A stretch of 64,000 nucleotides of DNA. Origin: an uncultured Planctomycetota bacterium. GTDB taxonomy: Bacteria > Planctomycetota > Planctomycetia > Pirellulales > Lacipirellulaceae. The DNA is taken from the NCBI GenBank assembly GCA_963719315.1, contig CAVRBU010000001.1, forward strand, positions 96,001 to 160,000, given 5' to 3'. Numbering within the stretch: position 1 is the first letter of the stretch; each line of letters begins with the position of its first letter. Of the stretch, positions 13,499 through 41,700 are shown piece by piece. The notes under the pieces are model-generated. The model worked only from the letters and a program-made list of their open reading frames with translations, searched no databases and had not been told where the DNA came from. The translations under genes were made by a program, and so were the position numbers.

Positions 13499-13522
13499 TC
13501 GGGCCGACCGGAGGACCTACAC

Positions 13523-23470: not shown

Positions 23471-23863
23471 TTATGGCTGCCCGCGGGCGGCCCCGAAAAA
23501 ACTCGAATCACAATGCCAAGTCCCGACTTTCAGCGGCACGCCGTCCGCCACGTGGAATTGGATCGTTCCGACCCGATTCGTGGCCAATACCCGCGCTCCG
23601 GACCGTTCGTATGTTTTAGTGACGAGCTCGATCTCATCCCCGCCGCCGCCGCTGATCACTACCCAATTCGGTGTGCTCCAAGCGGCGAAGCCCGGCGGAT
23701 CGCTTCGCCGGCTGCCGTGGTGCGGCGCGAGAAGGATGTCGCAGTCGTAGGACTTCTCGGCCATCACGTCGTCGATGCCGGGCGATTCCAAGTCGCCGGG
23801 CAACAACAGCCGCCGACCCGCGTACTCCACCCCCAACGTGACGCTATTCGCGTTATCGCTTCC
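23471..23863 (-). pseudogene. comEC: ComEC/Rec2 C-terminal fragment (distal half of the metallo-beta-lactamase domain), separated by the integrated element
   Basis: GSDNANSVTL..LLLPGDLE..APHHGS..VVISGG continues in frame the N-part that ends in GSDNAN at 36513. Confidence 0.93.
23846..23863. repeat. att core, left direct repeat (18 bp)
   Basis: ATTCGCGTTATCGCTTCC, identical to 36513-36530. Confidence 0.95.
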
Positions 23864-23912
23864 AATTCTGGTTACCGTGGATTCGTTGGCGGTCGCATAA
23901 GGATTCAACACC

Positions 23913-24092
23913 ATGCCCCAAGAAAAGATGACGTGGCTACAGTGGCAGCGACGGCAAGCGATCAAGCAGTTGGAGCGAAATAGACTGAAAAGAAAGGCTA
24001 AGCGTCAACGGAAGGCGATGAAGATTGAGTTTGATGATGAGCGGATTGCAATGTTAAGAGCACGCCTAATCGCACTGGAGAAAGCCGTCTAA
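23913..24092 (+). CDS. Small basic protein (59 aa, MPQEKMTWLQWQRRQAIKQLERNRLKRKAK...LEKAV); candidate recombination directionality factor
   Basis: Translated by hand (shorter than any ORF in the track); AAGGA ribosome-binding site about 9 nt upstream; first ORF inside the element. The function is inference only. Confidence 0.5.
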   Translation: MPQEKMTWLQWQRRQAIKQLERNRLKRKAKRQRKAMKIEFDDERIAMLRARLIALEKAV

Positions 24093-24222
24093 AAGAAAGT
24101 TCGTGTCGATAATAATTAAGAGCCGGTGTGCGGGGTAGCTCCCACGCATAGTCCTGCCAACACGTTAAGTCGTTTGTCCTCGCTAAACGTGTTGGCGGGC
24201 GTCCCGGTTCAGAGGACAAAAA

Positions 24223-24891
24223 ATGAAACTAATCAATGGTCGATGGTCTGCGATAGATTACGTTGAACAAGAAACCAAAACTGGCAAAGCAAGTCGGGTC
24301 ATTCGGCCTTTTGCCATCGGCCCAAAAGATCGGGTTCTGATCGTTGGTCGCAAGTCTGGCCGCGAGCGAGACAAGAATCTCAAAGATTCTATCGCCAGTC
24401 TGACCCAGGTCGTTGAATCGGCAGGCGGAACTGTGGTAGGCAGCTTCGGTTGGAAAGGCTCGGGGTGGGATCCTGATTGGATAGCCGCCGCAGTGCTGCG
24501 GGCACGGCGAATGGGGGCTACTGTACTCTTGGCTGAAACCACAGATCGTTTCATTCGCAACTTGCATTATCATAGTGCCGACAATCCCGATCTCCAGGCT
24601 ACAGATGAGCAGCTAGATGAGGCAGCTCGACTTGCGGACGGGATGACATTAATGACTCACCTAAATCCGGACGCTACGCCAAGTGAGGTTCGAGGCTACC
24701 AGTCTGCTCGCGGTCAGCGAATCAAAAACCGGACAGGTGGGCGGCCAAGGAATCCAGGTTCTACGAGGCACAGACGGTGGGCCAATCTCGTAGACGTGAG
24801 GCGGGCCCGAAGACGAGGCATGAGCCTGCGGGAAATTGCGGTGGACTTCGGGATTTCAAAGTCCGTTATCTATGACTGGTTGAATAGATAG
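24223..24891 (+). CDS. Divergent small serine recombinase (resolvase/invertase-like) with C-terminal HTH
   Basis: VGRKS (catalytic RxS), ETTDRFIR (DRxxR), GGRPR hinge, MSLREIAVDFGISKSVIYDWL HTH. Confidence 0.7.
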   Translation: MKLINGRWSAIDYVEQETKTGKASRVIRPFAIGPKDRVLIVGRKSGRERDKNLKDSIASLTQVVESAGGTVVGSFGWKGSGWDPDWIAAAVLRARRMGATVLLAETTDRFIRNLHYHSADNPDLQATDEQLDEAARLADGMTLMTHLNPDATPSEVRGYQSARGQRIKNRTGGRPRNPGSTRHRRWANLVDVRRARRRGMSLREIAVDFGISKSVIYDWLNR

Positions 24892-25087
24892 TCAGCGGGT
24901 GTCCGGTTTTTGACCGGATTTACACTGTAAGATTTCAGTTCACCCACGTATTTGCAGTGTTTCTTGCAGACCGATGCTGCAAAAAGCTATCGAAAACCGT
25001 TACAATAGCTCCCACGCCATATTACTACTCGTCACGGGGTTTCGCGTGTGGGAATCGACGGCTCCCGGCACATGATTCGGGTAGCCG

Positions 25088-25633
25088 CTACTTCCCGCCG
25101 ATCTGCTCTATTATCTCAACGATCTTGGGTACACTTTCATCGTGATTGCGATAGAAAGGGTTCTTTTGCAATTCGATGCCAGCGTTTTCGTAACGGGCTC
25201 GGCGATTGACCCCATCCCAGTCGACAGGCATCTTGGTGCGATGTAGGAGTTCGTCCTCTTCCTTTGTAATTGTCGCAATCTCCCAATGTTTATTCAAAAG
25301 GTCTTCCACGAAATCGACCGTGAGTTCACCTTTTTTTGCTCGTTCCTCACACGGCCCTTGAATGTATTTCTGTTTAGGCACAAGGTGCTCATATCTCAGG
25401 CCCGGGTACTTCTTAGCTTTGAGCTGTTGCAGAGCGGCACTGGAAATCAAATGCGTCTTATGGTGTTTGTGCATACTTTGAAAATGACTTTGACTGGCAA
25501 AGGCATTTGATAAGAATTTGTTCAGCCCTTCCTTAAGCCCTTTTACGACTAGTTCATCCGTCCAGTCGATGCTGTTGAGCAATTTGCAGTACGATTCCGC
25601 CAGTTTCCGGTATTGTGACATTGGTCGAATCAC
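25088..25633 (-). CDS. Hypothetical protein, possible HNH/His-Me-like nuclease, overlapping the mrr stop
   Basis: YEHLVP and ITKEED motifs; ORF overlaps the end of mrr by 4 bp. Confidence 0.55.
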   Translation of the reverse strand: MIRPMSQYRKLAESYCKLLNSIDWTDELVVKGLKEGLNKFLSNAFASQSHFQSMHKHHKTHLISSAALQQLKAKKYPGLRYEHLVPKQKYIQGPCEERAKKGELTVDFVEDLLNKHWEIATITKEEDELLHRTKMPVDWDGVNRRARYENAGIELQKNPFYRNHDESVPKIVEIIEQIGGK

Positions 25634-26544
25634 TCATCTTCGTCGAAGAAATCCTCGGAGATATCCAGAAGTTCGTAATTGCGTTTCGGTGTAACGCCAA
25701 CGCGATGCTCGATCATCAACTGGCAGAGCTTATCTCCGTCGATTAGGACTACTTTCTTACCCTCGATGCGATCAACATATTCGAGTGCATCGCTGCTAAA
25801 GTGGCTCGTAGTTAGGATCACACCTTTCTTGCTGCGGTGTAGGTCCATGCTGCCAACAAACTCTTTAACGGTCGGGCTGCCGACAGTTTTTTCCCAGCGT
25901 TTCGCTTGGATACAGACTGTGTCGAGGCCCAACTTATCCTCGGAGATGATACCGTCGATTCCGCCATCGCCCGACTGCGGTGTTACCAGTCCGCTGCCGG
26001 TCACTCCGCCATATCCCATCGCTTGCAATAATCTCAGCACGACGGTCTCAAAAAAGTAGGGTGAGCATTCTTTGACTTTTTCCAACAAGTCGGTCGCTAC
26101 TTTCTTTCGCAATTGATCGTAGGCCGAGTCGATAACTTCTTCGGGCGTGGCGGTCGTCTCAATCCGCTCATCGACCGGTTCTACATCCTTATCTGTGGCC
26201 TTTCCTTTCTTGAATTCACGAAACGAGTCGTATTTTCGCAGAAAATTTTGGTCGATTTGACTTGGGTTTTGTTTAAGTACGTTACGGCCAAGTTCCGTGA
26301 TCGTAACAAAACCGCGTTTTGGCGAAGATAGAAGCCCTGCGGCTTTCAAGTAGCTGCGAGCCCAGCCGATGCGGTTGGGTACGAATCGTTTCTGTCCGCT
26401 CGGCATTTTTCGGTTGATCTCTTCGTCAGTGAGTGCGAACCCCTTGGCGAGTGGCAAATAGAGATCACGCAGACGATGATCTTGGCCATCTTCAATGGCG
26501 GTGAGGAGCGGGAGCATAAAGGCATCATACGTTGGAATAGTCAT
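25630..26544 (-). CDS. mrr: Mrr-family type IV restriction endonuclease
   Basis: Mrr_N (IPTYDAFMLPLL..NRIGWARSYLKAAGL) and catalytic DGGIDG..IQAKRW..GVILTTSHFS. Confidence 0.95.
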   Translation of the reverse strand: MTIPTYDAFMLPLLTAIEDGQDHRLRDLYLPLAKGFALTDEEINRKMPSGQKRFVPNRIGWARSYLKAAGLLSSPKRGFVTITELGRNVLKQNPSQIDQNFLRKYDSFREFKKGKATDKDVEPVDERIETTATPEEVIDSAYDQLRKKVATDLLEKVKECSPYFFETVVLRLLQAMGYGGVTGSGLVTPQSGDGGIDGIISEDKLGLDTVCIQAKRWEKTVGSPTVKEFVGSMDLHRSKKGVILTTSHFSSDALEYVDRIEGKKVVLIDGDKLCQLMIEHRVGVTPKRNYELLDISEDFFDEDE

Positions 26545-26878
26545 AGGCGGATTCTAAATTACGCGGAAGCAGCACGCGAGATAAGGAGCGACGCCGAAGG
26601 CGGAGCGACTCGGGAAGAAGCATTGGCCGATGGTGATCTCGCAGCGGTGTCTCAACGCTATTCCCGTGATGGTCTGTCAATGTCCAGTGAGACAGTGAGA
26701 AATCTTGCGAAAACGGACTTTTTTAAGTCACTATCTAGCAACGACTTGCGTCAACCGATTGCACCATTTGGTGTCTAATTGGTGCAATGACTAAACCGCT
26801 CCTTTCGTGAAACTGGTCGAGCACGGGCGGCATCGTTAGCGGCCCGCTCACTCACCCCGTTTCACAAGGAGAAATCTC

Positions 26879-27361
26879 ATGGCTACGATCACAAAGAAGA
26901 CCGCGAAGAAGTCTTCACCAGTCAAGAAGAAGACCGCCTCGAAGCAAAAGCAGTCAGTTACGGAATGGTGGCAAGATTCGTGGCAACACTTGGAAGACTT
27001 ACGCGAGAAGTACGATGGTCTTCCAGGCTTGATGGAGTACGCAACGGAAGAACTCGAAGTGAATCAAGATTGCGAAGTAGACGACATAGCAAACGAACTT
27101 CAAACTGAATCCTACTACGAGGACATGGACGTTGAAGAGTTTATCATCCTTGAAAAAGGTCCAGCGTTCATGACGAACAGAGCAATCTTCACGTGGTCAT
27201 ACAGCCACAGCAAAGATACCAAGGCTGTCGTATGTAAACTGGCAGCAGATTACGGTTTGACTTTCAATCAGCTAGTCAAACTTTACAATGCCCTGCCCAA
27301 CGAGAAAGACTGGAAAGGACAGGACGTAAAAGAGTTGTATGATCTCCACGTCAAGAAGTAA
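26879..27361 (+). CDS. Hypothetical protein with Lys-rich N-terminal tail and acidic core
   Basis: AAGGAG RBS; clean 160-aa ORF. Confidence 0.75.
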   Translation: MATITKKTAKKSSPVKKKTASKQKQSVTEWWQDSWQHLEDLREKYDGLPGLMEYATEELEVNQDCEVDDIANELQTESYYEDMDVEEFIILEKGPAFMTNRAIFTWSYSHSKDTKAVVCKLAADYGLTFNQLVKLYNALPNEKDWKGQDVKELYDLHVKK

Positions 27362-27441
27362 GTAAATCAGCTCACTCTCGCTCATGGAGGAGCGAGTGTG
27401 GGCATTGTCTTCCAAAGAGTTCAACCAATAAGGAATCTCAC

Positions 27442-27705
27442 ATGGACCACTATCAACAGTCGCACGAAACTCTGACTAGTGGAGTCAAAAAGAAGTTTGA
27501 GGATCTGGAACGGAACTACCCAGAGCCAGAGCATCAAGGTGCCTTGGCGAACTTGCGTGCAAAGGTACACAACTTCTGCACATCCGAGGTGCCGACCAAC
27601 GACGATGAACTGATGAAACTTACAAAGTCTAAAATGGATGTGATGACGGCAATACACGGAGTAGACAGTGTTCTACATCGAATGAAACTGTGGGCTAAAA
27701 AATGA
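27442..27705 (+). CDS. Hypothetical protein
   Basis: AAGGA RBS; 87-aa helical-looking ORF. Confidence 0.65.
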   Translation: MDHYQQSHETLTSGVKKKFEDLERNYPEPEHQGALANLRAKVHNFCTSEVPTNDDELMKLTKSKMDVMTAIHGVDSVLHRMKLWAKK

Positions 27706-27768
27706 ACTTGGAGTACAAGAATTGGCCCGTGAGATTGCTAGAGATTCTAGTCCACAAAACGATCTGGA

Positions 27769-28683
27769 TTAGTTTTTCTGCCGAGGCCGAGGTAGCGGTA
27801 CGATAGTCGGAACGTCGGCTTTCCAAACTTGACTTCTAGAGGTGCTTGTTGGAGGCATGGTATTATATGAGACGGTCCGTGGCACATCGGCACTAAGTGG
27901 CAGACCCGGAACAATCATTTCTGATTCGTCACAAGCCATAGTTGGAGAACTCCCATTGGCCGGAGCGGTCTGTCCTGCGTTTTTGGTATCCTGCCAAAAT
28001 GCCTTTACATGGAACCGCAACCACTGACGGTTGTGCTGATCTGGGTACTCAGTAAGCACAAATACAAATTCGTGCATTACCGACTGCTTCGGCCTTAACA
28101 CCGTTACTGTTTCAATAGTTTCGCCAGCATGTTTTAACTCATACCAATTAATATGCGGCGAATTATTTGAGATGGCGAAAATGCGACCGTGCCTACAATC
28201 GTGGGTCGGGTCCAATTTGGATAAGTCCGGGTAATCATCGTGTCTTTTCGCAATTGGCTTAAGTGGTACGTCCATAGTCGTAGCCGCATCTTTTACAATG
28301 TTACGCCGTTGATTGAAAAACTTTTGCGTGAGATACAAATCCTGTTGAGCGTCATCCGTAGGAACCCCGTCTGAGACGACCAATTGAAGTTTCTTTAACT
28401 CAGCTTCGGCTCCACCCACGTTTGTTACTACAATTCTCAGGCGTATCTCGCGGATGTCTTCGACTGAATCCGATTGTGAGATCGTTGGCGTCAAGGTAAT
28501 AGCCGGCTTGTTTTGCTGCTCGATATTTTCTGCTTGAGCCGCTGTTAGGCGATTTGGTTGGCGACCAAGAAGAAGATAGTTACCGCCAAGAACCAAGAGT
28601 GCCATTAATCCACCTGCGACTGCCCCGGGCACTCCATCATACGAAAATACTTTCGCAAGCAGTTTTTTCATCACATCGTCCAA
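27769..28683 (-). CDS. Hypothetical membrane-anchored protein
   Basis: 304-aa ORF with N-terminal TM segment (AVAGGLMALLVLGGNYLLL). Confidence 0.65.
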   Translation of the reverse strand: MDDVMKKLLAKVFSYDGVPGAVAGGLMALLVLGGNYLLLGRQPNRLTAAQAENIEQQNKPAITLTPTISQSDSVEDIREIRLRIVVTNVGGAEAELKKLQLVVSDGVPTDDAQQDLYLTQKFFNQRRNIVKDAATTMDVPLKPIAKRHDDYPDLSKLDPTHDCRHGRIFAISNNSPHINWYELKHAGETIETVTVLRPKQSVMHEFVFVLTEYPDQHNRQWLRFHVKAFWQDTKNAGQTAPANGSSPTMACDESEMIVPGLPLSADVPRTVSYNTMPPTSTSRSQVWKADVPTIVPLPRPRQKN

Positions 28684-29744
28684 TGAGTGCGGGATGTTGA
28701 GTCGAGAACCTGAGTGACTTTGTCGCGATCTGTCATGGGAAACGCTCCAAGATCAAAGTGACGCAATTTTAGCAATGAGTTCGGCGGATACCCATTAATT
28801 GCGACTTGTTGAAAATGCTGGTGCTGAGTATGCGTCGATTATCGACATTCAACGGCAAAAAACAATTAGTGAGTTCGGCGAAAAATGCAAGGAGATTCAC
28901 GAACTACACCCACCAGTTATCCACCAGATACCCCGTGCAACACAGTCCGCTCTCTCAGCAAATCCCCAGTCAACCTCACTCCAACTAGTGAGCAGACTCC
29001 GTCCAAAATCGCTAGGCAACTTCCGAACAAACGCAAGTGAGTTGGAAAAATGTGAGGCAAAAGAAAACCTCGAAAAAACAAGCAGCAAAAGCATCCTAGA
29101 CACCACACACCACACCCCACAAACCGCCGGTAAACCCCGCTCCGCAGCAACGCTCCACGAAGACAGCAAAAAAACAGAAAACGAGCCGAAGTGAATGCCT
29201 TAGTCAGTTTTGTCTAGTGCGTCCCAAGCAGTAAGACTACACTGCCACTAGATCACGATGTCTCAAACAGTGCGTACTGACCTAGGAGCAAAGACAAAAT
29301 CTAGTCACAACTAGGTAGAATCTGAGAAGCCTAACTAGAACTAGTTAACTCCCTAGTTATCATAAACGTCTGCGGCAGTTTTTTGCAGATTCTCGCCACG
29401 CTAGATTCGTCTAAAAAGAAAACTCAGGTCCCAAGAGGCCCGGCTTAGATTTTCGACGATCTGATCAACCTCGCGTCGATCTTCGATCCAAGTCTGGCTA
29501 CTCCGCGTCTAATGACCACAGCTCACGATCTAGCACGTCTGCATCGTCTCAAGCGTCGCTCACGCTGTAGATCACGCGACGATCACACTGTAGCTCCACG
29601 TCGTCTGTCAGTCGGTCGATGCTCACGCTGTCCATTTTATGGGGATCAGCGTTTCTCGCTTTGATCAATGCGTCGAACAATCACCGCGAATTTTTAGCCA
29701 GTGATCGTTCCGAAAAGAATCCGTCGATTTTATCGTTCGACCGA

Positions 29745-29806
29745 TTGACAGCGATCAAACAACCGATACGATGAAAGATAGCTAGTGGACGTGTGTACAC
29801 TAGCTA
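29745..29806 (+). promoter_or_regulatory. Putative sigma70 promoter followed by an operator-like palindrome
   Basis: TTGACA (29745)-16 nt-TACGAT (29767); TAGCTAGTG..CACTAGCTA inverted repeat 29779-29806; upstream of the rightward resolvase-terminase gene run. Confidence 0.55.
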
Positions 29807-29839
29807 GTTTTAGTCACCACGTATTTTGGAGAATCTGTC

Positions 29840-30227
29840 ATGTCTACGAAAACGAAAAAGACCGACGCAACGCCAGTCGCTCCCGCAACGGTTGTTGCTG
29901 CTCCCGCTGCTCCCGCATCGAATCGACCCGCTTACGAAAAGAAACGTATCGTTGGTGAAAAGATCGACGCAGATGATGCAGGCTGGAAAAAACACAGCCG
30001 AAGAAATCGCTAAAAGCCGTTGGTTGTTCAGCTGGCTCGCGTCAATGAGTCATTACAAATGGGCGAACGATGGGAAGAATCCACGCTACGAATTGAACGC
30101 TGCAACAACAGATTCGTATTTGATCGGAAAACCAATCGCGTTCCGTAAGCACTATTTCGATCCCGCACCCGTGGAAACAAAAGCCGACCGAAGAAAACCC
30201 GTAGCGAAGAAGACCACAGCTGCTTAA
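29840..30227 (+). CDS. Hypothetical Lys/Ala/Pro-tailed protein with an apparent frameshift near 29965
   Basis: GGAG RBS and ATG at 29840 (MSTKTKKTDATPVAPA..); plausibly continues in another frame as MMQAGKNTAEEIAK..KPVAKKTTAA. Confidence 0.5.
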
Positions 30228-30619
30228 TCACGTCACGTCACCCGCAACGCTCGCATGGCAATGCAATGTGACCGACGAATGCGAACGGCTAACTATTCCG
30301 CCTCACAACGATAGCCCGAAATGTTCCCCATCGACCGAACACCACGCTTGCAACCAATCACGATTGAGTACGACTGTAGAGGCAAACGAGTCGCAGAGGA
30401 CATTCACTAACGACTACGAGGCTCGCAGGTTCTACGTCACTAAAGACAAGGCAGGCAAACGACCTAAAGTGCGAAAGGTAGAGACATGAACTAATTGACT
30501 GCCAGGTTAGCGGAGAGTCGGTGTCTCGGTCTCACAGGAAGGGATCTCATGCCTGCACTTGAGATTTTGAGCAAGTCAACACTCCCAGTTTTTTAACCAT
30601 CATTTTCGGAGACAAACAC

Positions 30620-31238
30620 ATGAATCGTGTAGCAGTTTACATTCGCGTATCAACAACGGATCAAGAGAAAGGAATTGACTCACAGAAACGAGCAATCCGC
30701 CAATACCTGAAAGGTCACAACATTTCCAAGTCACGTTGGTTCGTTGATAGAATCTCGGGCAACTCGCTGAAACGTCCAAAGCTAGATCGACTCAAGCGTG
30801 CCATTTTCAATGGAGAAGTGAAAACCGTAATCGTTTGGTCACTCGACCGGATTACGAGACGCGGACCAAGAGACGGATTGGAGTTGCTTTCCAGTTGGAT
30901 GAAAAAAGGAGTTCGATTAGTTACCGTCACGGAACAGTTGGACTTGAACACAGACGCAGGTGAAATGATTGCGTCACTCTTGTTCAGCATCGCCAAAATG
31001 TACAGGACCAAACTCATTGAAAACACGAAACGTGGACTCGAAGCGGCCCGTGCACGTGGAGTCAAACTGGGTAAAAGACCGGGCAAGTGGACCGTTGGAG
31101 GTTAAACCGTTGCACGATGCGGGAATGTCGCCACCCGATATCGCTCGCAAGCTGGGGCGGACCCGTCAAGCGGTTCATAACGTGCTGAACGGTAAGACGG
31201 CAACGTGGAAGCCAGAGCAAGCGAAAAAAGCCCAGTAA
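30620..31238 (+). CDS. Serine resolvase/invertase; frameshift near 31100 separates the HTH
   Basis: VAVYIRVST, DRITR, GVKLGKRP; HTH (MSPPDIARKLGRTRQAVHNVL) in the next frame. Confidence 0.88.
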
Positions 31239-31340
31239 AACCATAGCTAGAATTAGGGATGACGATTTATAGGGATGCCTGGTAGAATTGGGATACCACG
31301 AGATACAAGCCAATTGTCGAGTGCGTAGAGTGAGCTACAA

Positions 31341-31796
31341 ATGAAAACGAAAAAGATCAAGACGCCAAAGCTAAAAACCAAGAGACACAACAAAATCCGT
31401 CTCTACGGTAAAAGAATCGTCAAGCTGCCATACCCGATAACCGGTAAGAAAGACAAAGGGTTCAGACTCCGCCAAATCACGGAGGCAGACAACCGATTCG
31501 CTGTGGTCAAGACAATGAAGCAACGTCTCAAGCAGTTGATCGAAGATGCAGACATTACTTCCATTCAAAGCGAATGGCTGGCTGCGAGAGCGGTCTTCAT
31601 TGTCGGTTATCTAGAGAGCCTAGAAGTTGATGCGTTGGATGGAAAACAGATTGATTGGACGAAGTATCTGCAAGCGACTCGTTCGCTCACTGACGTGCTG
31701 AACAAACTGGGTCTGGACAAGGTGTTGAAGTCCGCCCAGCGTCTCGAAAATTATGTGGCAAACTACAACGATGAGCAGTTGAAGATTCGGAAGTGA
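31341..31796 (+). CDS. Hypothetical protein, candidate terminase small subunit
   Basis: 151 aa; its stop overlaps the GTG start of the terminase large subunit (GTGA). The call is positional only. Confidence 0.45.
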   Translation: MKTKKIKTPKLKTKRHNKIRLYGKRIVKLPYPITGKKDKGFRLRQITEADNRFAVVKTMKQRLKQLIEDADITSIQSEWLAARAVFIVGYLESLEVDALDGKQIDWTKYLQATRSLTDVLNKLGLDKVLKSAQRLENYVANYNDEQLKIRK

Positions 31797-33212
31797 CTAT
31801 CATTGAAGCGATCGAAGATGAGAACTTGTTTAGGTCGTTCCTGGCCAATAGAAAAGATAGCCTAGAAACATGGAGACCTTGGCTAATAGCGTTGCGAGTG
31901 TTGTATGGTCTTGCCAGTACGAACGACGTACGCTCGCAAGCTGATTCGTAAGTGCACGGGACGCGACCCCGACAAATTGCCAAAAGATGGTTTTCAAACG
32001 GCACTCTTTCTCACGGGCCGACGATCCGGTAAGTCTAGAATCGCGGCAGTCATTGGTGCTTACTCCGCAGCTCTCGCAGGTCTGGAAAAGAATCTGGCCG
32101 CGGGTGAACCCGGACTCGTCGTGATCGTTTCACCGTCTAAAAGACAAAGGCACGTGGTGAAGGATTACTTGCGGGCCATTTTCGATGCTCCGATGCTCGC
32201 CCAGGAACTTGTGACCGACAGAAGGCACGAAGGTTTTGAGTTGACCTCTGGCACTCGCGTGGACATGCTCGCTGGTGACTATCGCCACGTCAGGGGATTC
32301 TCACTCTTAGCTTGCGTCTGCGAAGAAGTGTGTTTTTTTGGTCTCGATGAAATGACGCGAGTCCGTAGTGACACCGAATTAATCCGTGCACTCAAGCCGT
32401 CTTTGGCAACCACGAATGGCAGATTGATTTGCATTTCGTCACCGTATGCAAGACGAGGTTGGGCTTACCAGCAATACAGCAAACACTGGGGCAATGATAA
32501 CTCCGATACGTTGGTTTGGAACGCACCGAGTCGCACGATGAACACGACACTCCGGCAGAGCGTGATTGATGCAGCGATAGCTGAAGATTTGAGTGCAGCG
32601 AAGTCAGAATATATGGGAGAATTCCGTGATGATGTCTGTCTCTTTATGCCACCAGAGATGATAGATCGTCTAGTCGTTCGTGGACGCATTGAGAACCAGT
32701 ACGATCCCACGAAAAAGATAGAAGGCATTCGCTGATCTGTCTGGAGGTAGAAACGATGCGGCTGCACTTGCAATCGCCCACCGCGAAGGACGCAAGACGG
32801 TTCTCGATTGCATCCGTCATTATCCAAGTCCGCACAACCCGCATCCCGTAATCGCGGAGATGTGTCGCGAGTTGCCGCGATGGGGAATCAATCGCATTAC
32901 AGCCGATGCCTACGCTGCGGACTTCGCTGTCGGAGCTTTCCAAAACCACGGGGTGAAGTACACCAAAGCCGAGAAAAACAAGTCGGGTTTTACGCGGAAT
33001 TGCTGCCAGTCATCTGTGCGGGTGAACTCGAATTGTTGGACCACCCCAGGCTGATTAAGCAATTGAGCACACTCGAACGTAGAACACGATCAGGCGGTAA
33101 GGACGTGATAGATCACCCTGTCAATCAGCATGATGACTTGGCGAATGCCTTAGCAGGTGTTGTAGTGCTCTCAGCAACGAAGAAAAAGAAAGTCGGGGCC
33201 GGAGGGTTCTGA
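31793..33212 (+). pseudogene. Phage terminase large subunit, broken by about 3 frameshifts (~31915, ~32725, ~32990)
   Basis: Walker A GRRSGKS, Walker B CVCEE, ISSP coupling motif; nuclease motifs ADLSGG, ITADAY and [10 protein letters not shown] in successive frames. Confidence 0.85.
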
Positions 33213-33230
33213 CTCGAAAGGAAAACCAAA

Positions 33231-33734
33231 ATGAATCTCAAGCTACAGCAGGAATGGAACGAAGAATTGACATTCACCGATCCAGAGAGGCAAGCCTTTT
33301 ACGAAACTCATGGAGATTTTGTAGTCGCTGATGACCACGAAGTGTTGTTTGAAGACGGAGCCGTGGAGGAAGGTTGTGTTGGTGGTCAGAGACAGCCGCC
33401 ACCTAAAGACGCCTTTGAGCGTGCGAAGAAGATTCATCGTTATTTCGAGTTCAAAGCGGACCATGCACTTGAGCAATTCAAAGATTTTAAAGCATACCTT
33501 TCCGGTAACGGTTCTTGTCCTGCTTTCATCGCCAACAAAAGCGACGAAAAGAAACTTGCGTACCTGAAGAAATTGCGTCTTGCTGCGAAAAAGGCAACGG
33601 CTGGTCTTCGTGAAGCCATTCAAGAGGTCGAAGACGAGACACCAGCATGGATCGTTGCGAGAGAACGGGAGCGGGCAGAAGACGAACGAAGAAAACAGAA
33701 TTTCAGAAACAAAGTCGATTCCATCAGATTGTAA
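33231..33734 (+). CDS. Hypothetical protein
   Basis: AAGGA RBS; 167-aa ORF with coiled-coil-like C-terminus. Confidence 0.7.
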   Translation: MNLKLQQEWNEELTFTDPERQAFYETHGDFVVADDHEVLFEDGAVEEGCVGGQRQPPPKDAFERAKKIHRYFEFKADHALEQFKDFKAYLSGNGSCPAFIANKSDEKKLAYLKKLRLAAKKATAGLREAIQEVEDETPAWIVARERERAEDERRKQNFRNKVDSIRL

Positions 33735-33757
33735 CCACCAACCTTTAGGAGAAGATC

Positions 33758-34057
33758 ATGATAACAGTAAACATTCACCCGAAGACCGCACCGAATCCAA
33801 AGTGTTGTTCCGATCCGAGTGTGCTTTGTGCCAATTGTGCGTCTGAAGTTCTCTCCAACCAATTCCGCAGACGACGCAAACGTAGGGCGATACTGGCCGC
33901 ACAACAGCACGAAGAGGTTGCGTTGGGTTTGCCGGACTGGGATTTCAGCGACAAGACCGAAAAGCATGTTGTGCAGACGGAAAAAGAACGAAGACAAACC
34001 GTTAGACACATTCACGGAGAGAGACCCTTGGCCATTCCCGAACTCGACTACGGTTAG
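33758..34057 (+). CDS. Hypothetical Cys-containing protein
   Basis: AGGAG RBS; CC..CANC motif. Confidence 0.6.
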   Translation: MITVNIHPKTAPNPKCCSDPSVLCANCASEVLSNQFRRRRKRRAILAAQQHEEVALGLPDWDFSDKTEKHVVQTEKERRQTVRHIHGERPLAIPELDYG

Positions 34058-34108
34058 CGGTAAAGTCGTCGCCCAGACTGTGCACGAGGGTTTGGGCTTG
34101 ATGCTCGC

Positions 34109-34150
34109 GGCCGCAGTTCGTGGGTTTACTTCATAGCACGAACTGCGGCC
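34109..34150. terminator. Perfect 14-bp inverted repeat after the terminase gene run
   Basis: GGCCGCAGTTCGTG (34109-34122) and CACGAACTGCGGCC (34137-34150); no U-tract, so the role is uncertain. Confidence 0.45.
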
Positions 34151-34827
34151 CGCTCGATTACTTGGATCTGTGAAGTGCCGGTGTGGTGGGACTGTTCTTC
34201 ATAGTCTCGCAGTCCTGCCACCCGGCTTTTGAAAAGACAAAGATCGTTCTCCTTTGGGGGCCGGCTGCCGTGGTTTTCCATCAGTGTGACGCGGCAGTCG
34301 GTTTTAGAAAGTCCGTGAAGTGCTGGGAGTGGCGGCGGTGGTTTCATATCCTTAACCGCTGCCGCACCCCCCGGCCATTGAGTTCTACGGGAGCCAGCCT
34401 GACAGCGGTGGAGTTTTTCACCTGCTTCGCCCTGTCGGCTGTTTTTTTCATCCGCCGATTTCCTGATCGCTGGCGTGGGACGATGTTAGGTTGGGTGGTT
34501 TTGCAAGTGGCTGTTTTTAGCCATGCCGTCCAAGGGGTGGCAACGATGGTCGATCCGAGCCAGCGAACGCGGCAAATGACCACTGGGGGGCCGCTATGGC
34601 GTGCTGAATCGGCAAGCGAGCCAAGCCGGAGCCAACGATCAATCGAACATGGGCAAGTTGTTAAGCAAAAAGAAAATGCAACCACTTGAATCGTCGCGGA
34701 TACAATGCTCGCGGCGGCAACGATTCGCAGCGTAATTAACTGTATCGGGCCATTCAATCCCTGACCGGATTGGCTGCCGCCATTTTTCTTACATCGTGTT
34801 TGGTCAGGGTGAAAGGTCAGGGCTTCT

Positions 34828-36555
34828 ATGGCGAAAAAAGACGCTAAGCCGATTCGCTTCGCGGCATGGATTCGCGTCTCAGACAAAAAGCAAGAGAAGC
34901 ACGGCGAGTCGCTTAACACGCAACGGGCAGATAATCGTGCCGACGTGGGGCGTCTAAAGGGCAAGATCGTGGAGTGGTATGGGGGCCAAGAGCACGGCAC
35001 TCCCGGCTTTGAGAAGAAAGAGTTTGATCGCCTTTTGGCGGATGCCAGGAAAGGCAAGTGGGATGCGGTGATCTTGAACCACGCCGACCGCTGGAGTCGC
35101 GACAATGAAAAGTCGAAGGAAGGACTCCGCGTGCTTCGAGATCAGAATATCAAGTTTTTTGTGCGGACCTTTGAGCAAGACCTGAACAATCCGACCGTTC
35201 GACTCTACTTGGGCATGTCCGCCGAGATCGGCGAGTATCAAGCGGCCACACAATCTCAGAAGTCGCTGGTCAATCGTCTCAATCGAGCCAAAGAGCATGG
35301 CGTTCCTACGGCCGGCGGACCAATGCCATACGCTCGGTCTTTTAACAAGGTAACAAAACAATGGGAACTCGATGAAAACAAGCGAGCACTCATTGAAGAT
35401 GCGGCCCGCCGCTATCTCGCAGGCGGTTCAATCAAAAAGATTGCGGCCGAAATTGGCATGGAGCATACGCGACTGCACCGAATTCTTACAAAAGGCAGCG
35501 GTGACAAGTGGGAGATTCGCTTTCACTCCAAAGACCTCAACATCGACGAAACGGTCCTATTCACAATTCCGCGATTGCTGTCGGACGAGACCATACGACG
35601 GATTCATAAACAGGTCGCTTCCAACAAGACTTTCACCCACGGACAACCTAAGCACAAATACTTACTCGGTCGCATGGTGTTTTGTCACCACTGCGGAGTT
35701 CCGTTGACCGGGCAGACCCGCCAAAGCGGCAACCGTTACTACCGCCACGCGAAGCCTACGGCCACTAAGCCGTGTGTCTGTGGGTCTGGCGGCGTTGATG
35801 GGAAACTGCTTGAGGAGAATGTGATTCGCCAGCTTTTCGATATCTTTGGGAACCCGCTCGCGGTTGAGCGTGCGATTCGAGACGCCACCCCCGATCTTGG
35901 CAAAACGGAATTACTGCGGAATCGGCAAGCACAGATCGAAAAGGAATTGGCGAAAGTGGAGCGGGCCAAAAAGCGAATTCTAAATCTGATCGACTTGGAC
36001 ACGATCACGGACGAGGACGCCACGCTGAAACTGACGGAATTAAAGCTAAGAGCAGAAGGATTCAAGGACGAGCTATCGGAGATCGAAGATAATCTCTCGA
36101 AGTTTCGTTCCCCGGAAGCGATCAAAGCAGTTTCCGAAATGGTCGCTCAGTCGTTCACCGAGGCAATGTTTCCAGCCCGTCGAAATTGCCGAGGCATCGG
36201 CTTACTCGCACACGAGGGCAAGAATAAGAAAGGCCGATTGAGTGCGGCATTGTGGGCCAAGTTGGATCAAGCCGACGAAAGTCACCACGAAATGACTTGG
36301 GATGAAAAGCGGTCCTTGATGCAAAAAGTGCTTGGTGGCCTTACACCAAGAGGCAAGCGGATGGGCGTTTACATCGAGTGGGTTAGCGGCGAGGATGGCC
36401 AGCCGCCAAAATGGCGATACTCGATCCGTGGGCAAATTACGCAGCCTCTTCTGTGGCCCCAATCGAAAGAGCGACCGCAAAACGCTCACGAAGATGCCGT
36501 AAACAAAATTGGATTCGCGTTATCGCTTCCCAGCACGCCTGGCTCGGGCGGGTGA
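34828..36555 (+). CDS. Large serine recombinase (integrase); ORF reads through the att core
   Basis: WIRVS catalytic Ser, DRWSR, recombinase domain, CHHC..CVC zinc ribbon, coiled coil. Confidence 0.95.
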   Translation: MAKKDAKPIRFAAWIRVSDKKQEKHGESLNTQRADNRADVGRLKGKIVEWYGGQEHGTPGFEKKEFDRLLADARKGKWDAVILNHADRWSRDNEKSKEGLRVLRDQNIKFFVRTFEQDLNNPTVRLYLGMSAEIGEYQAATQSQKSLVNRLNRAKEHGVPTAGGPMPYARSFNKVTKQWELDENKRALIEDAARRYLAGGSIKKIAAEIGMEHTRLHRILTKGSGDKWEIRFHSKDLNIDETVLFTIPRLLSDETIRRIHKQVASNKTFTHGQPKHKYLLGRMVFCHHCGVPLTGQTRQSGNRYYRHAKPTATKPCVCGSGGVDGKLLEENVIRQLFDIFGNPLAVERAIRDATPDLGKTELLRNRQAQIEKELAKVERAKKRILNLIDLDTITDEDATLKLTELKLRAEGFKDELSEIEDNLSKFRSPEAIKAVSEMVAQSFTEAMFPARRNCRGIGLLAHEGKNKKGRLSAALWAKLDQADESHHEMTWDEKRSLMQKVLGGLTPRGKRMGVYIEWVSGEDGQPPKWRYSIRGQITQPLLWPQSKERPQNAHEDAVNKIGFALSLPSTPGSGG

Positions 36556-38756
36556 AACACGCGAATCGAAACGTCCGAACCAACTTGCAGCCGATCGCCC
36601 GACCAGATTTCGCGGATCGGCACGCCGGCTCTCTCGATCTCCTTATGCAGCAACTTTACGCCGTCCGTCGCGCCCGAGTCACCGAACCCCGCGAACATGA
36701 CGGGCGAAACATACACGGTACCGACCCGAAATCGCTCCAACAGCCCGGGGACGGCGTTGTAGTGGTCGGAGTCTGCGTGCGAAATCACGATTCCATCGAT
36801 TCGCAGGATGCCGCGGTGCCACAAGTAGGAAGCGATCGTTTGCGTGGCATACTCCGGCGAGCCGATCGCCCCGGCGTCGTAGAGCAGTGTTTTGCCATCG
36901 GGGCTTTGCATCACGGCGCACGCCCCATGCCCAACGGCGACGAACGAACAATCGAGCCCGCTACGCGTCCAGGTTCTCGACAGCGGCGGCGCGAGACCGA
37001 CCAGAATCCACACCGCAAGAGCCGCCACTTGCCAGCGCGGCGCAAGGAGCGTCCGGCCTTTCACCATCACCACAAGCAACCCGAGATAAAACACCGCAAC
37101 CCACCACCACGCTGGACCTGGCGCCCAAAAATGACCGGCGGGCACGGCATCGGCCCACGAAACTACACGCTCCAACCACGCCAGCGACCCGTTGCAAACC
37201 CAACCGCACAACACACCGAACGGCGGAATCAGCCCGCCGATGGCCACCATCAAGAAGCCACTCCACATCGACACGAAGACAATCAGCGAAACCGCCGGGC
37301 TGATTACGACGGCAATCGGCGAAGCGATGTGAAACTGGCTGAGCACCAGCGGCAGCGTCGTAAGCCACACGACGGCCGACATCAACAGCAGCAACATCGT
37401 GGCGCCAGCACACCAGTCGAAAGCGCGGCGATACCAGGGCCACGTCTCCCTTTCCAATTCTTCGATCGGAGTCATCGGCCGCCGTATCGGCCACCAGGTC
37501 CACCCGCCGATCCATACCAATGCCGCGACGGCCAGAAAACTCAATTGCGGCCCCGGCCGAAACAGATCGCTCGGTTTGAGCGCCAACACGAACAGCGCCG
37601 CCAGGAACAGCGAATTGAACGCCACGCCGCGGCGACCGGTCCAGGCGGCGACGCAAAACAGCACGCCTAGCACCGCGGCCCGCACCACCGGCGGTTGTGC
37701 CTCGGCAAGTAGCGCATACCCGACCACAACCGCCACGATCACGCTCAACCCAACCCGCCGCGGCAGCCAGCCGACCCGCATCAAGGCAATTAGCCCGGCG
37801 GCCAGGATTGCCACGTTCATACCCGAAACCACGAGCACATGGATCGTCCCCGTTTCGAGATATTGCTCCGTTTCTTCAAAAGGAAGTCCTTCGCGAGCGC
37901 CCAACAGAATCGCGGCCGCCAGACCGGCACGTTGGCGACCGATCATCGTTCGCACGTATTGTTTGGCACGCGCGCGAACTTCGTCCAACCAATACCCTGG
38001 CGTCCACGCGCTGCCGGCCGCCAATCGCACCACGCTCTCCGGCGCCGAACTGCGGAGCCGCGCCAACTGCCCATCGGCACGGGCGTGCGCCGCGAAATCA
38101 AACTCGCCAGGATTGAGCGGCGGCGCGGGCCGAGCGAGTTGACCGTACACGCGCAGCGTGTCGCCTCGGTGCACACCCAACAAATGCCCATTCACCGCGA
38201 GTTGACAAACACCGCTCGCGGGGCGCCACTCCCGGCCATCGCGGATTTCCTTCACTTCAACCAGCAGCCGGCTGCGTTCGGTGACCGGAATCGCGCGGAG
38301 CGGCGTCGGCGGCGGCGCCGAGACGCGCTCGGGCGACTGGCAAGCCACCGCCTCGATGCAGGCCGGCGCCGGCTGATAGGCGGCGTACCGGCTAATCTCT
38401 TCTTTGGCAAAGAGAAACCAGTTCAGATGATGCCACGCGGTTCCCACCAGCGCCGCCGACGCCAACAACAGCCCCGCGGCAATCGCTTCCCGTCCCCGCC
38501 GCCACGCCAACCACCAAATCGCCAGGAAGCAGGCACATAAACTCCAAGACACGACAAACCATCCGGCGCTTCCCAACCAACCGAGAGTACTGGGAAGATC
38601 TGCAGTCAGGATATAGCGATCGAACGCCATTCCGACCGCTACGGCTGCGAACGCGAGGACGAGCGGTTGATAACGTGCGCGGGAGCGGACGCCGTTTTCG
38701 ACTCCGGCCGTCTCAGCGGGAGAATCGCCGTTCGCTTTCGTGCAGACTCCGTCCAT
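36486..38756 (-). pseudogene. comEC: ComEC/Rec2 N-terminal part (competence channel and first half of the MBL domain), truncated by the element
   Basis: NPGEFDF, HVLVVSGMNV, PPVVRAA, QLSFLAV, VGHG, SHADSDHY; ends GSDNAN plus element-derived PILFTASS*. Confidence 0.94.
36513..36530. repeat. att core, right direct repeat (18 bp)
   Basis: ATTCGCGTTATCGCTTCC, identical to 23846-23863. Confidence 0.95.
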
Positions 38757-38764
38757 GCGACGGA

Positions 38765-41700
38765 TTATACAACGCCGGCAGCAGCCAATGTAAACTCTTT
38801 CAGCGATTCGAAGACGGCATCCACCGAATTCAAATCATCGCCCTCAGCGTCGCTTGCAATTCGCAGGCCCATCGCTGCATCGTTGTTCGCACGACCTTCG
38901 TTTTTCGACGACGATAGCCATGCCAACAGTCCCGCGTCGTGGTGCGAGCCGCCATTCAACGCTGGCCGACCGAAATGTCGATCGCGCCCGCGGATTCTGC
39001 TATTACCGGTTGAGTAGGAGTCGAACGATCTCAGGGCAGCGTTTTCCGGCCTGGCCGCTTGGCCAACGGTACTCGCGGAAACGCTTGCTGTCGGGGCCGC
39101 AACTAGTTCACCATCGGCCACGTTCGATGTCGCCAGGGCAATCCCCGCGGCGGCAGGACTAGCGTCCGGAGCCGGCGCGGGTTGGGGCGCCTCGGCCAAT
39201 TCCTGTCCGCTGCCACTGCCGTTCGTCTCGCCATAATGCTGGCGCCAAACAAGCAAGTCTCCCGGGCCAACAACGCCGTCTCCATCCCCATCCGCGCCTG
39301 TGAATTGTGGAACCGTTTGGCCAACCGTCCGGCGATACATCACGTAATCGCCCGCGTCGACGACGTTGTCGTGGTTGTAGTCGCCCAGCAACATCTGCGA
39401 ATGATTGCCGAAATCGACGTTCTTCACATTCCGGTGGCTGTCGGGCGGTGTATCGTTGGGATCATCCTGGGCGGCAACCGTGACCGTCCATTGCGAATTC
39501 GCGTATTCGGCAGCCGGGATACTTGCGACCTGCGGGGGCACTTGCGTCCAGCCCGGTTTCTGTTCTTCGCGAATGACGTACTGGCCCGCCGGCAGATCGG
39601 GGAACGCGTAGTTCCCATCCGCGTCGGTCGTTAGATACACTTCGCCTGACTTGATCTCCAGCGACCAGCTATTGAGAGTGCCCTGATCGGCGAACGCATT
39701 GTCCCGTATCAGCAGCGTCCATAGCCCAGTCGCACTCTCGCCGATGAAATCGCTCAGCAAGCCCTCAGGCTTCCAAGTGCCCGTAAATGGCAAATCGTTG
39801 ACGCCAATTGTTGCGATCGACCGCGTCGCAGCGTCGTCTAACGTCAGATTATGCAGGTCGTTATATTGACCGCCGACCGCCGTGAACAGTTCGACCTGCC
39901 TCCCCGACGGGCTGATAAGAAAGGCGTCCAGGTCTCCCACAAAGCTGTGGGTCACATCGAGCGTCACGCGAACACTGAACACCGTGCCCAGTTCGTTGAA
40001 CGACACGCTCGACGTAGTCGTCGAAAAATCGGTAATCGGCTGGGGCAAGCCGGTTGCGTTGATCGTCACCGGGTCGGAGCCAAGATCTCGAGTTCCGTCG
40101 TTATCCGAATCGATGTACACGATCCAATTCGACAACCCGGGTTCGTTGCCATCGTTAACCCCATCGCTATTGAAATCGTTGAATTTTTGACCCGCGATCG
40201 AACCATGCTGCGTCGTGGGAATCCAATTTCCGAAGTCGATACCCAGGATATCGGCTCCCGACCTCACCGTGACCGGGCTGGGCGCGAAGCTCTGGCGCCA
40301 ACCATCGGCCGCCTGCTGCTCGGAGATGTCTTCGCGAATGAAGTATTGCCCAGCCGGCAGATCGGTGAACGCATAGTTGCCGTCGGCATCGGTGATCTGG
40401 AAAGGCTCTAGAAACACACCTTGCAATTTGACCGTGATCGACCAACTGTTCAAAACACCTTCGTCACCCGTCGCGTCATCGGTGATCTCGAGGTTCCAGA
40501 CGCCGACGGCATCCTCCCCGTTCAAGACGCTCAGCGGCTCGATCGGCCGGTACCGGCCGGTGAAGGGCGCCGCACCGCTCAAGATCCCGGTCGGCGCCGC
40601 ATCGTCGAACACCGTGGCGGTGAAGTTGTCGCCTTCCGGATCCTGCGGGGTCGCATTTTGAACCAGCTTCACGCGCGTCCCCGACGGACTGACCAAGTAC
40701 ACTTTCACATCGGAGTCGTATGTATGCGTGATATCGAGCATGACATCGATATCGGCGATCGTTCCGACTTCTTCGAACGACAATTCGCTTTTGACAGTTG
40801 TGTAATCGTGAATCGCTTGCGGAATATCAGGCGAGGCGACGGTTAGGTCTTGATCGCTCGTGGAATTGAGAATTCCGTCGTTGTTCACATCGAGATAAAT
40901 GACCCAGTTCGGCAGTCCCGCTTCGCTTGCGTCGTGAACCCGATCGCCGTTGACGTCATTCCACTTTTGCCCCTGGATCGATCCGACCTTCGTCGGCGCA
41001 ATGGCCACGCCGGCGATCGCGGCGATGAATCCTGTTTCGTTGGTCACCGTAATCGTGATCTCGCCGGACGCGTCCGAGATCACGAGCAGCGAGTAGGTCG
41101 ACAAATCATTGCTGCCGGGCATGTTGCCGTTGGTGACTAAACCGTCCGCCGAGACGTTCTGCACATAGTCAAACGTTTGCAAAGTTCCGTTCCACTGGCC
41201 GCCCACGACGTGAACATCGTTTTTGGCGTCCGCGCCGGCGTGCCCGAATACGTACACCTGGTAGACCGTCGACGGCTCCAGATTTCCCCAGATAAACGAC
41301 AGCGTTTCGTCCTCCGCCGAGATGTAGCCATCCAGCCCATCGAGCGGCAGCCCATGATTCGGGATATCGGCCGGATCGATCGGGTTGGGGCTGGCAACCG
41401 TCGCGATCGGCGAAGCGCCCGTGGTTTGGATCGTCAGTTGGTAGGGCGTAACCTGCCCCGCTTCGCTGACAAGATTCTTGATCGTCTTATCCGTGTCGCC
41501 GCCGGCGTAAAGAGTCCAATTCTCAGGGCTTGATCCGTTCGCGTCGTCGAAATCAACGCCGACTACCAGATTCTTTTTCCGTGTGCCGACGATGCTGTAA
41601 TACCCCAGGCTACCGTAATTCGTGTATCCCCAGTCCGAGGTGTCGGGAGGGAGCGGCGGGTCGGGCGGATTTCCCTCCGCCTCGAACGGACCAGGGTGAA

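Follow-up and report, generated by a model that had tools for sequence, protein, structure and literature searches.

A 64,000-nucleotide stretch of contig CAVRBU010000001.1 (positions 96,001 to 160,000, assembly GCA_963719315.1), derived from an uncultured Planctomycetota bacterium of the Lacipirellulaceae and referred to here as the window, carries an integrative element inserted into comEC. The attachment site of this element lies within the gene (int) of its own integrase, a large serine recombinase, and recombination must exchange the C terminus of the enzyme. This layout, proposed in a first-pass annotation made from the letters of the window alone, follows directly from the sequence and is reinforced by the palindromic structure of the reconstructed attachment site of the element (attP); at the level of the sequence, how the swap comes about is established. 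The overlap of integrase gene and attachment site together with the tail swap is confirmed and is widened here to a clade of integrases. As to its meaning, the balance leans slightly toward a tolerated by-product of an inherited architecture and not toward an evolved degron switch of the ssrA type.

The features on which this description is based are as follows, all on the plus strand.
34828..36555, plus strand: large serine recombinase gene in its integrated form, 575 amino acids, running through the right repeat.
23846..23863, plus strand: core copy of the left attachment site (attL), with the predicted crossover TT at 23853-23854.
36513..36530, plus strand: core copy of the right attachment site (attR), in which the predicted crossover TT (36520-36521) forms the start of int codon Leu565, its first two bases.
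23864..23900, plus strand: codons 569-579 (ILVTVDSLAVA) and TAA stop of the circular-form integrase.
36496..36519, plus strand: P arm of attP, GCCGTAAACAAAATTGGATTCGCG, encoding approximately residues 557-564 of the integrase, A-V-N-K-I-G-F-A.
23855..23878, plus strand: P' arm of attP, ATCGCTTCCAATTCTGGTTACCGT, read on the circle as ..S-L-P-I-L-V-T-V.

A search of both strands of the window finds the 18-bp core ATTCGCGTTATCGCTTCC in exactly two copies, at 23846-23863 and 36513-36530 and on the plus strand only, where arithmetic gives a chance expectation of ∼0.03 for an 18-mer repeat in 64 kb. The integrated open reading frame (ORF) ends in ..NKIGFALSLPSTPGSGG (..LSLP-STPGSGG) and takes its last 7 residues and its stop codon from antisense comEC DNA at 36531-36555. 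On the excised circle, the frame is read across the repeat into 23864-23900 and ends after 579 amino acids in ..NKIGFALSLPILVTVDSLAVA (..LSLP-ILVTVDSLAVA). Reconstruction by script reproduces exactly the lengths, tails, and coordinates that the first-pass annotation had given for the two forms. The forms are the same through Pro568 (CCC versus CCA) and diverge from residue 569 on. With a crossover at the central TT in the Leu565 codon, everything 3' of the TT has to be replaced; the protein is altered only from residue 569 because 9 further bases are common to attP and to attB, the site of attachment in the host.

The reconstructed attP, GCCGTAAACAAAATTGGATTCGCG-TT-ATCGCTTCCAATTCTGGTTACCGT, forms an imperfect palindrome of ∼46 to 50 bp, GTAAACAAAATTGG-ATTCGCG-TT-ATCGCTT-CCAATTCTGGTTAC. 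Its arms are inverted repeats of each other at 16 of 24 positions, compared to a mean of 6.4 in shuffled sequences, and none of 2,000 shuffles reaches 16; the symmetry of attB amounts to 10/24. The attP of the element is thus short and pseudo-palindromic around a central dinucleotide, and its attB is a simple site in a host gene. The attP sites of serine integrases are described as pseudo-palindromic, with half-sites of ∼25 bp around a central dinucleotide (PMC3783163). The symmetry of attP and the TT at the center of the sites in related elements point to the TT as the probable crossover. In the circular form, attP is contained wholly within the last ∼21 codons of int, with both arms inside the ORF. 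As a consequence of this overlap, the P' arm determines 4 of the 11 circle-specific residues (ILVT) and leaves only V-D-S-L-A-V-A free to vary.

The insertion itself is documented by the host gene on both sides of the element.
23864..36530, plus strand: integrative element, 12,667 bp including one 18-bp core copy, delimited by the flanking repeats and the restored ComEC frame.
36531..38756, minus strand: 5' part of comEC, 742 host codons with Competence, DUF4131, and Lactamase_B domains.
23471..23863, minus strand: displaced 3' part of comEC, 130 codons and stop.
The GC content of the element is 0.47 to 0.53, compared to 0.56 to 0.64 in the flanks. A scripted join of 23863 to 36531 brings back an uninterrupted ComEC of 872 amino acids on the minus strand; as interrupted, the comEC frame has 756 amino acids (36486-38756). 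The 18-bp core encodes G-S-D-N-A-N of the metallo-β-lactamase domain of ComEC and lies in the conserved motif G-S-D-N-A-N-S, of which D-N-A-N-S is retained in 10 of 11 comEC loci of relatives, the remaining one having D-N-S-N-S. In same-genus relatives, comEC is uninterrupted (frames of 880 to 922 amino acids), and a close homologue of the integrase was found in none of 23 such relatives, with a best E value of 3.5e-7. Comparison with these relatives shows a recent insertion into comEC. The 12.7-kb element would have been placed into the G-S-D-N-A-N-S motif by its own large serine recombinase, and, as far as its sequence indicates, it may be active at present.

Its domains, its PHROG, and its fold identify the product of the ORF as a large serine recombinase, predicted to catalyze recombination between attP and attB. 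Excision by such enzymes requires a directionality factor, and no candidate for one was identified. Pfam profiles identify a resolvase domain (PF00239) at residues 12 to 155 (E value of 1.7e-13) and a recombinase zinc ribbon (Zn_ribbon_recom, PF13408) at residues 279 to 336 (E value of 1.8e-6), whereas the Recombinase domain PF07508, which in large serine recombinases follows helix E, is unreported at an E value of ≤0.01. In PHROGs, the ORF matches the integrase family phrog_95 (1e-47). Among 43 aligned sequences, R16-V17-S18, comprising the nucleophilic serine of the resolvase-type catalytic domain, is invariant, as are C286 and C289. An AlphaFold model with a mean predicted local distance difference test (pLDDT) score of 81.8 resembles solved full-length serine integrases over ∼590 alignment columns; the fold matches include 9dxh (E value of 2.6e-18) as well as phiC31, Bxb1, and LI/4kis. 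The zinc ribbon carries an inserted coiled coil, modeled as long helices at residues 357 to 445. Residues 548 to 575 have pLDDT scores of <50, so that a tail of ∼28 residues beyond the last conserved β domain is predicted to be disordered, and the swapped residues form the end of this predicted disordered tail. The gene is present as a single copy in the genome.

A protein search yields 114 homologues, the best with 52% identity and most of them from Planctomycetota-like sources. Many of these proteins end in ..V-T-K-S-A-L-Y/H or continue past that peptide. The loci examined comprise 52 from genomes (50 with an int stop codon), 80 from metagenomes, with L080 and L113 duplicating the genome loci L003 and L014, and 1 viral locus. 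The latter, L053, is the only locus from the scan of viral contigs; it matches residues 1 to 433 of the integrase and was excluded from further use. The DNA directly past the int stop codon is conserved and belongs to a gene of the YjbQ family (PF01894, 6.9e-36; TIGR00149, 1.8e-33). Of the 50 genome loci with an int stop codon, 35 have a YjbQ fragment directly at this stop codon, 26 times antisense and 9 times on the same strand, and the predicted crossover in these 35 loci falls in the YjbQ Asn42 codon, 2 to 65 nucleotides (nt) before the end of the int stop codon. In each of the 26 antisense cases, the predicted center is TT; 13 of them read T/TGA, so that the int stop codon is made at the joint. 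Seven of the nine same-strand cases have AA at the center; the other two come from gapped alignments. The same YjbQ arrangement is found in 25 of 53 metagenome loci, and the remaining loci lie in other genes, among them those for FlhB, a fucosidase, Usp, FadL, and a C69 peptidase.

In 11 nonduplicate loci (L003, L011, L014, L016, L019, L020, L021, L042, L044, L130, and L147), the other half of the interrupted yjbQ is located 6.3 to 11.2 kb upstream, which gives attL and hence attP. The attP sites of these relatives are symmetric at 13 to 18 of 24 positions in eight of nine tested. This mapping of yjbQ halves replaced a search for the other end by exact repeats, which returned mostly 11- to 13-bp chance matches and is uninformative in the relatives because their cores are short. 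Two loci contain attP in contiguous form. In the metagenome contig L105, it lies inside the int ORF (3599-3644) and is symmetric around TT at 15 of 22 positions, with an integrase ending in ..LPLRLTGTIGVAA; the intact attP indicates an element caught unintegrated. In L083, 14 of 22 positions are symmetric around TT. Locus L110 is set among the attP forms by its tail motif (described below) alone, the palindrome being unsupportive (11/22). The P arm in the window aligns with the conserved C-terminal V-T-K-S-A-L-Y block of the family. The overlap of int and attachment site is an inherited trait of the clade, in which the P half-site is translated into the conserved C-terminal peptide, an example of dual coding constraint. 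Host DNA supplies the int stop codon in the integrated state.

Several further observations concern the target sites of these relatives. Elements of 6 to 11 kb are inserted at the YjbQ/UPF0047 Asn42 codon in either orientation, with TT or AA on the int strand (listed loci L003, L011, L016, L019, L020, L021, L026, L030, L033, L037, and L038). Many of them carry their own full-length yjbQ beside attL or just upstream of int, apparently replacing the broken gene. Locus L014 contains a 248-bp exact duplicate of the 3' part of yjbQ (11677-11924 and 13114-13361), 1.4 kb downstream of attR, and L011 contains a second N-terminal part of yjbQ at 13412-13546; these duplicates suggest tandem or successive insertions at one site. 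Five metagenome contigs (L101, L118, L121, L122, and L123) share another recurrent target, with the conserved sequence ..attccat.acgaa.ta.gg.. past the int stop codon, which in antisense looks like the protein kinase motif ..Y-F-V-M-E-Y... A tRNA target for the ..VTKSALY tails was considered and discarded, as ARAGORN finds no tRNA within 400 bp of the int stop codons in the 52 loci scanned.

The first-pass annotation had suggested, from the resemblance of -LAVA to ssrA/ClpXP tags (-LAA), that the excised-form integrase may be unstable and bias the direction of recombination. In this model, the ending ..SLAVA would be an ssrA-like degron for ClpXP (or another C-terminal degron), the excised-form integrase would be short-lived, and integration would remove the tag. 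By the rules known from Escherichia coli, an ssrA-like ClpXP degron requires an exposed C terminus with -LAA or -AA as its last residues and a free carboxylate. A degron at this position is physically possible, since the tail closes a segment predicted to be disordered, and its non-polar, alanine-terminal end resembles the tmRNA tag of the host, ANGNFALAA. The likeness is limited to this small, non-polar, alanine-terminal end, and -AVA differs from -LAA or -AA, with ILVT being imposed by the P' arm. The degron has a precedent in phages with tyrosine integrases, where Int and viral-form repressors with -AA tags are described (PMC8092301).

The conservation of such tails among relatives offers the degron no support. 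Past the crossover, the tails of relatives comprise 0 to 20 amino acids in the integrated state and 17 to 58 in the circular state. Twelve of 14 circle tails are polar or charged at the end (GERP, ATRR, RQLS, ATPQ, ATPQ, RRHP, ASRC, PFGR, DLLI, SAQ, TLC, and EQE), and the other two end in -GVAA and -TGAA, of which only one fits the pattern [AVLI][AVLI]A. Endings in -AA also occur on integrated tails, namely, in 3 of 60 loci (L020, L143, and L145, with L143 identical to L145). No family-wide hydrophobic, alanine-terminal tail is present among the tails of the relatives. The conservation of att-in-gene and of hydrophobic alanine-ending tails in homologous comEC-targeting integrases had been suggested as a check; the first is kept across the clade and the second is not. 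No comEC-targeting homologue contributes to this comparison, as tblastn with the restored ComEC finds comEC beside the homologues in 0 of 52 genome and 0 of 80 metagenome loci (0/132).

Certain frequencies speak for the degron and weigh against a neutral tail. Among all stop-terminated frames of this genome, no more than 0.25% end in three residues from [AVLI] followed by alanine, and 0.83% fit the wider pattern [AVLI][AVLI]A; among long open frames (≥250 codons), the shares are 1.0% and 2.1%, so that such an ending would arise by chance in about 0.25 to 2%. Likewise, the two attP-form tails ending in -AA among 14 compare to an expectation of 0.83% per frame (P of ∼0.006), a pattern chosen post hoc. 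The -LAVA ending is uncommon, not rare, and was spotted after the fact. Taken together, the degron is quite improbable and is the weaker of the functional readings.

The circle tails of relatives share a different feature, which also counts against neutrality. A motif of the form x-[PHRN]-[FL]-x-L-x-[GATC]-x, typically P-F-T-L-S-G, is found in 14 of 14 circle tails, 8 to 12 residues past the crossover. In the 75 nt after the crossover, it appears in the int frame of all 11 reconstructed junctions, whereas the five remaining frames contain it in 1, 0, 0, 0, and 0 of the 11. Its codons vary: leucine is encoded by five codons from both codon families, glycine by all four GGN codons, and phenylalanine by both of its codons, and the mean pairwise identities at the three codon positions are 0.53, 0.60, and 0.30. 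As the pattern was defined from the sequences in which it is counted, some circularity attaches to these codon-position figures but not to the frame control. An AlphaFold model of the attP form of L105 shows the motif (residues 547 to 554) as a strand, the sole structured part of the tail, although with pLDDT values of ∼52 to 55 compared to 36 to 43 around it, this is a weak result. The frame and codon pattern make the excised-form extension of the YjbQ-targeting relatives look like a translated peptide under selection. A function of circle-specific tails is therefore probable in the family, and the prior for a function of the tail in the window is raised, too.

Such a function would not need proteolysis. 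The circle extension could alter the activity, directionality, or partner binding of the integrase, with integration switching this effect off; an extra strand on the C-terminal β domain or the recruitment of a host factor might be the route. The frame-specific motif with its varied codons, the modeled strand, and the precedent of phage Mx8, where an altered C terminus changes integrase behavior according to PMC6070905, are in line with this idea. For the element in the window, it is nevertheless unlikely, since its circle tail is shorter (11 amino acids) and lacks a match to P-F-x-L-x-G in all three forward frames, and the motif in the relatives is subject to the circularity and the low model confidence mentioned above. 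The arms of the site comprise 21 nt here compared to 20 in the family; attP is 2 nt longer, and the frame beyond the site is consequently shifted. A frameshifted remnant of the motif was considered in the frame shifted by one after attL (..SGYRGFVGG.. compared to ..YRFLLDGG.. in relatives) and rejected, the likeness being too weak. The 32-nt exact pattern of P arm plus core has 0 matches in the metagenome contigs.

Another consequence of the overlap could lie downstream of int, where the circle joins the gene to a small reading frame.
23913..24092, plus strand: 59-amino-acid basic ORF (orf59), starting 12 nt past the circular-form int stop codon.
On the circle, the int promoter could drive orf59 and downstream genes only in the excised state, with integration uncoupling them at the level of transcription or translation. 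The TAA stop codon of the circular form overlaps a possible Shine-Dalgarno sequence, AAGGA, with the ATG of orf59 12 nt further on, and crude pattern scans find no terminator-like site in 23600-24400 or on the plus strand of 34500-36900. In L003 and L014, the circle-form int stop codon overlaps the ATG of the next ORF (ATGA). The relatives mostly argue in the other direction: the gene next to int is a convergent yjbQ copy in four of nine, which precludes coupling there and shows that the effect is not general, and three others have no nearby start. Family comparisons assign no family to orf59, and the pattern scans are crude, which leaves such a coupling quite improbable. An ORF beginning MLLPN.. 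appeared coupled to a circle-form int stop codon, but it only mirrors, in antisense, a full-length yjbQ copy carried by the element, and coupling was discounted for the loci concerned.

A tolerated by-product of inherited architecture therefore remains the slightly favored explanation of the swap in the window. The swapped residues end a tail predicted to be disordered, with ILVT fixed by the P' arm and the circle motif of the relatives absent; neutrality of the swap is what these sequence features would imply. Tentatively, the overlap may instead be a selected device producing two isoforms tied to the state of the element, in which a circle-specific peptide tunes stability, activity, or partner binding. 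Conceivably, this peptide would be P-F-x-L-x-G in YjbQ-targeting relatives and the hydrophobic, alanine-terminal tail in the comEC-targeting element, and integration might delete it, often by creation of a stop codon at the crossover. If true, this would place protein-level control of directionality or dosage within the recombination site of a serine integrase. A functional tail would make this the first case found of a serine integrase product edited by its own reaction, and a self-contained record of "in" versus "out" that could feed back on direction or dosage.

Irrespective of function, the overlap affects annotation. Those int ORFs of the clade that are annotated from integrated copies have host-derived ends, often with a host stop codon. 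The native excised-form integrase is longer, by 4 residues here and by 17 to 58 in relatives. Enzyme mining for genome engineering would yield clones of the wrong isoform, and attP must stay in the coding sequence.

Four further genes of the element are common to the elements of relatives.
24223-24891: 222-amino-acid protein with a C-terminal helix-turn-helix, with counterparts in 10 loci of relatives.
30620-31105: 161-amino-acid small serine recombinase, with counterparts in 18 loci.
31905-32735: 276-amino-acid terminase-large-subunit-like protein, with counterparts in 11 loci at 54 to 62% identity.
32808-33212: 134-amino-acid protein, with counterparts in 12 loci.
The element may be a satellite, a degraded prophage, or something else. 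Its cargo includes an Mrr-type restriction endonuclease (25630-26544, minus strand; Mrr_N, 1.5e-27; Mrr_cat, 8.8e-35). Outside the element, a 1,464-amino-acid ORF (38765-43159, minus strand) lies directly upstream of comEC.

In characterized large serine integrases, attP is described as lying beside int and not within it. The enzyme from the window resembles those of A118/LI, phiC31, Bxb1, and SPbeta in domain order, fold, pseudo-palindromic attP, and insertion into a conserved coding motif. It differs from them in the position of attP within int and in the missing detection of PF07508 at the threshold given above. The view of the first-pass annotation that the layout is unusual for a large serine recombinase holds for the literature, as no report of a serine integrase gene that contains or overlaps its attP was found in the open-access full texts searched; within the clade, the layout is the rule. 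The targets of large serine recombinases are reported to be enriched in DNA competence genes by a survey whose pipeline searched for PF07508 (PMC10083194). Surveys starting from this profile may overlook the present clade.

The tyrosine integrase precedents named in the first-pass annotation are borne out by the literature. In phage Mx8, attP is located in the int coding sequence, and integration creates a new 3' end of int and an altered C terminus (PMC6070905). The att core within the int ORF and the change of the C terminus by integration are common to both systems. Int of Mx8, however, is a tyrosine recombinase with a tRNA-linked attB, in contrast to the large serine recombinase with a palindromic attP, a 2-bp crossover, and clade-wide occurrence described here. 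The likeness of the integrase from the window to the Mx8 type is confined to layout, and the enzyme falls outside that type. In mycobacteriophages (BPs, Charlie, and Mycobacterium abscessus prophages), attP lies in a gene whose viral and prophage C termini differ; in many cases the junction creates the stop codon, viral forms as well as many Ints bear ssrA-like -AA tags, and Int-S systems have cores of 5 to 8 bp and disrupt ORFs (PMC8092301). In the integration-dependent immunity of these phages, the split gene encodes the repressor, which is active and stable in its integrated form, the integrases are of the tyrosine type, and the tags end in -AA. Here, the gene crossed by attP is that of the integrase itself and not of a repressor; the enzyme belongs to the serine type, its circular form ends in -AVA, and nothing implies a function in immunity.

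The SSV-type archaeal integrases belong to the tyrosine family and likewise contain attP within int, where the gene is broken in two upon integration and both parts are inactive. In the element described here, only the last 7 to 11 codons change, and the enzyme stays whole. TnpX of Tn4451 and Tn4453 is a large serine recombinase whose expression is tied to the excised circle by a promoter formed at the joint. The joint of these transposons alters transcription at the 5' end of tnpX, whereas the joint of the present element alters the 3' coding end of int.

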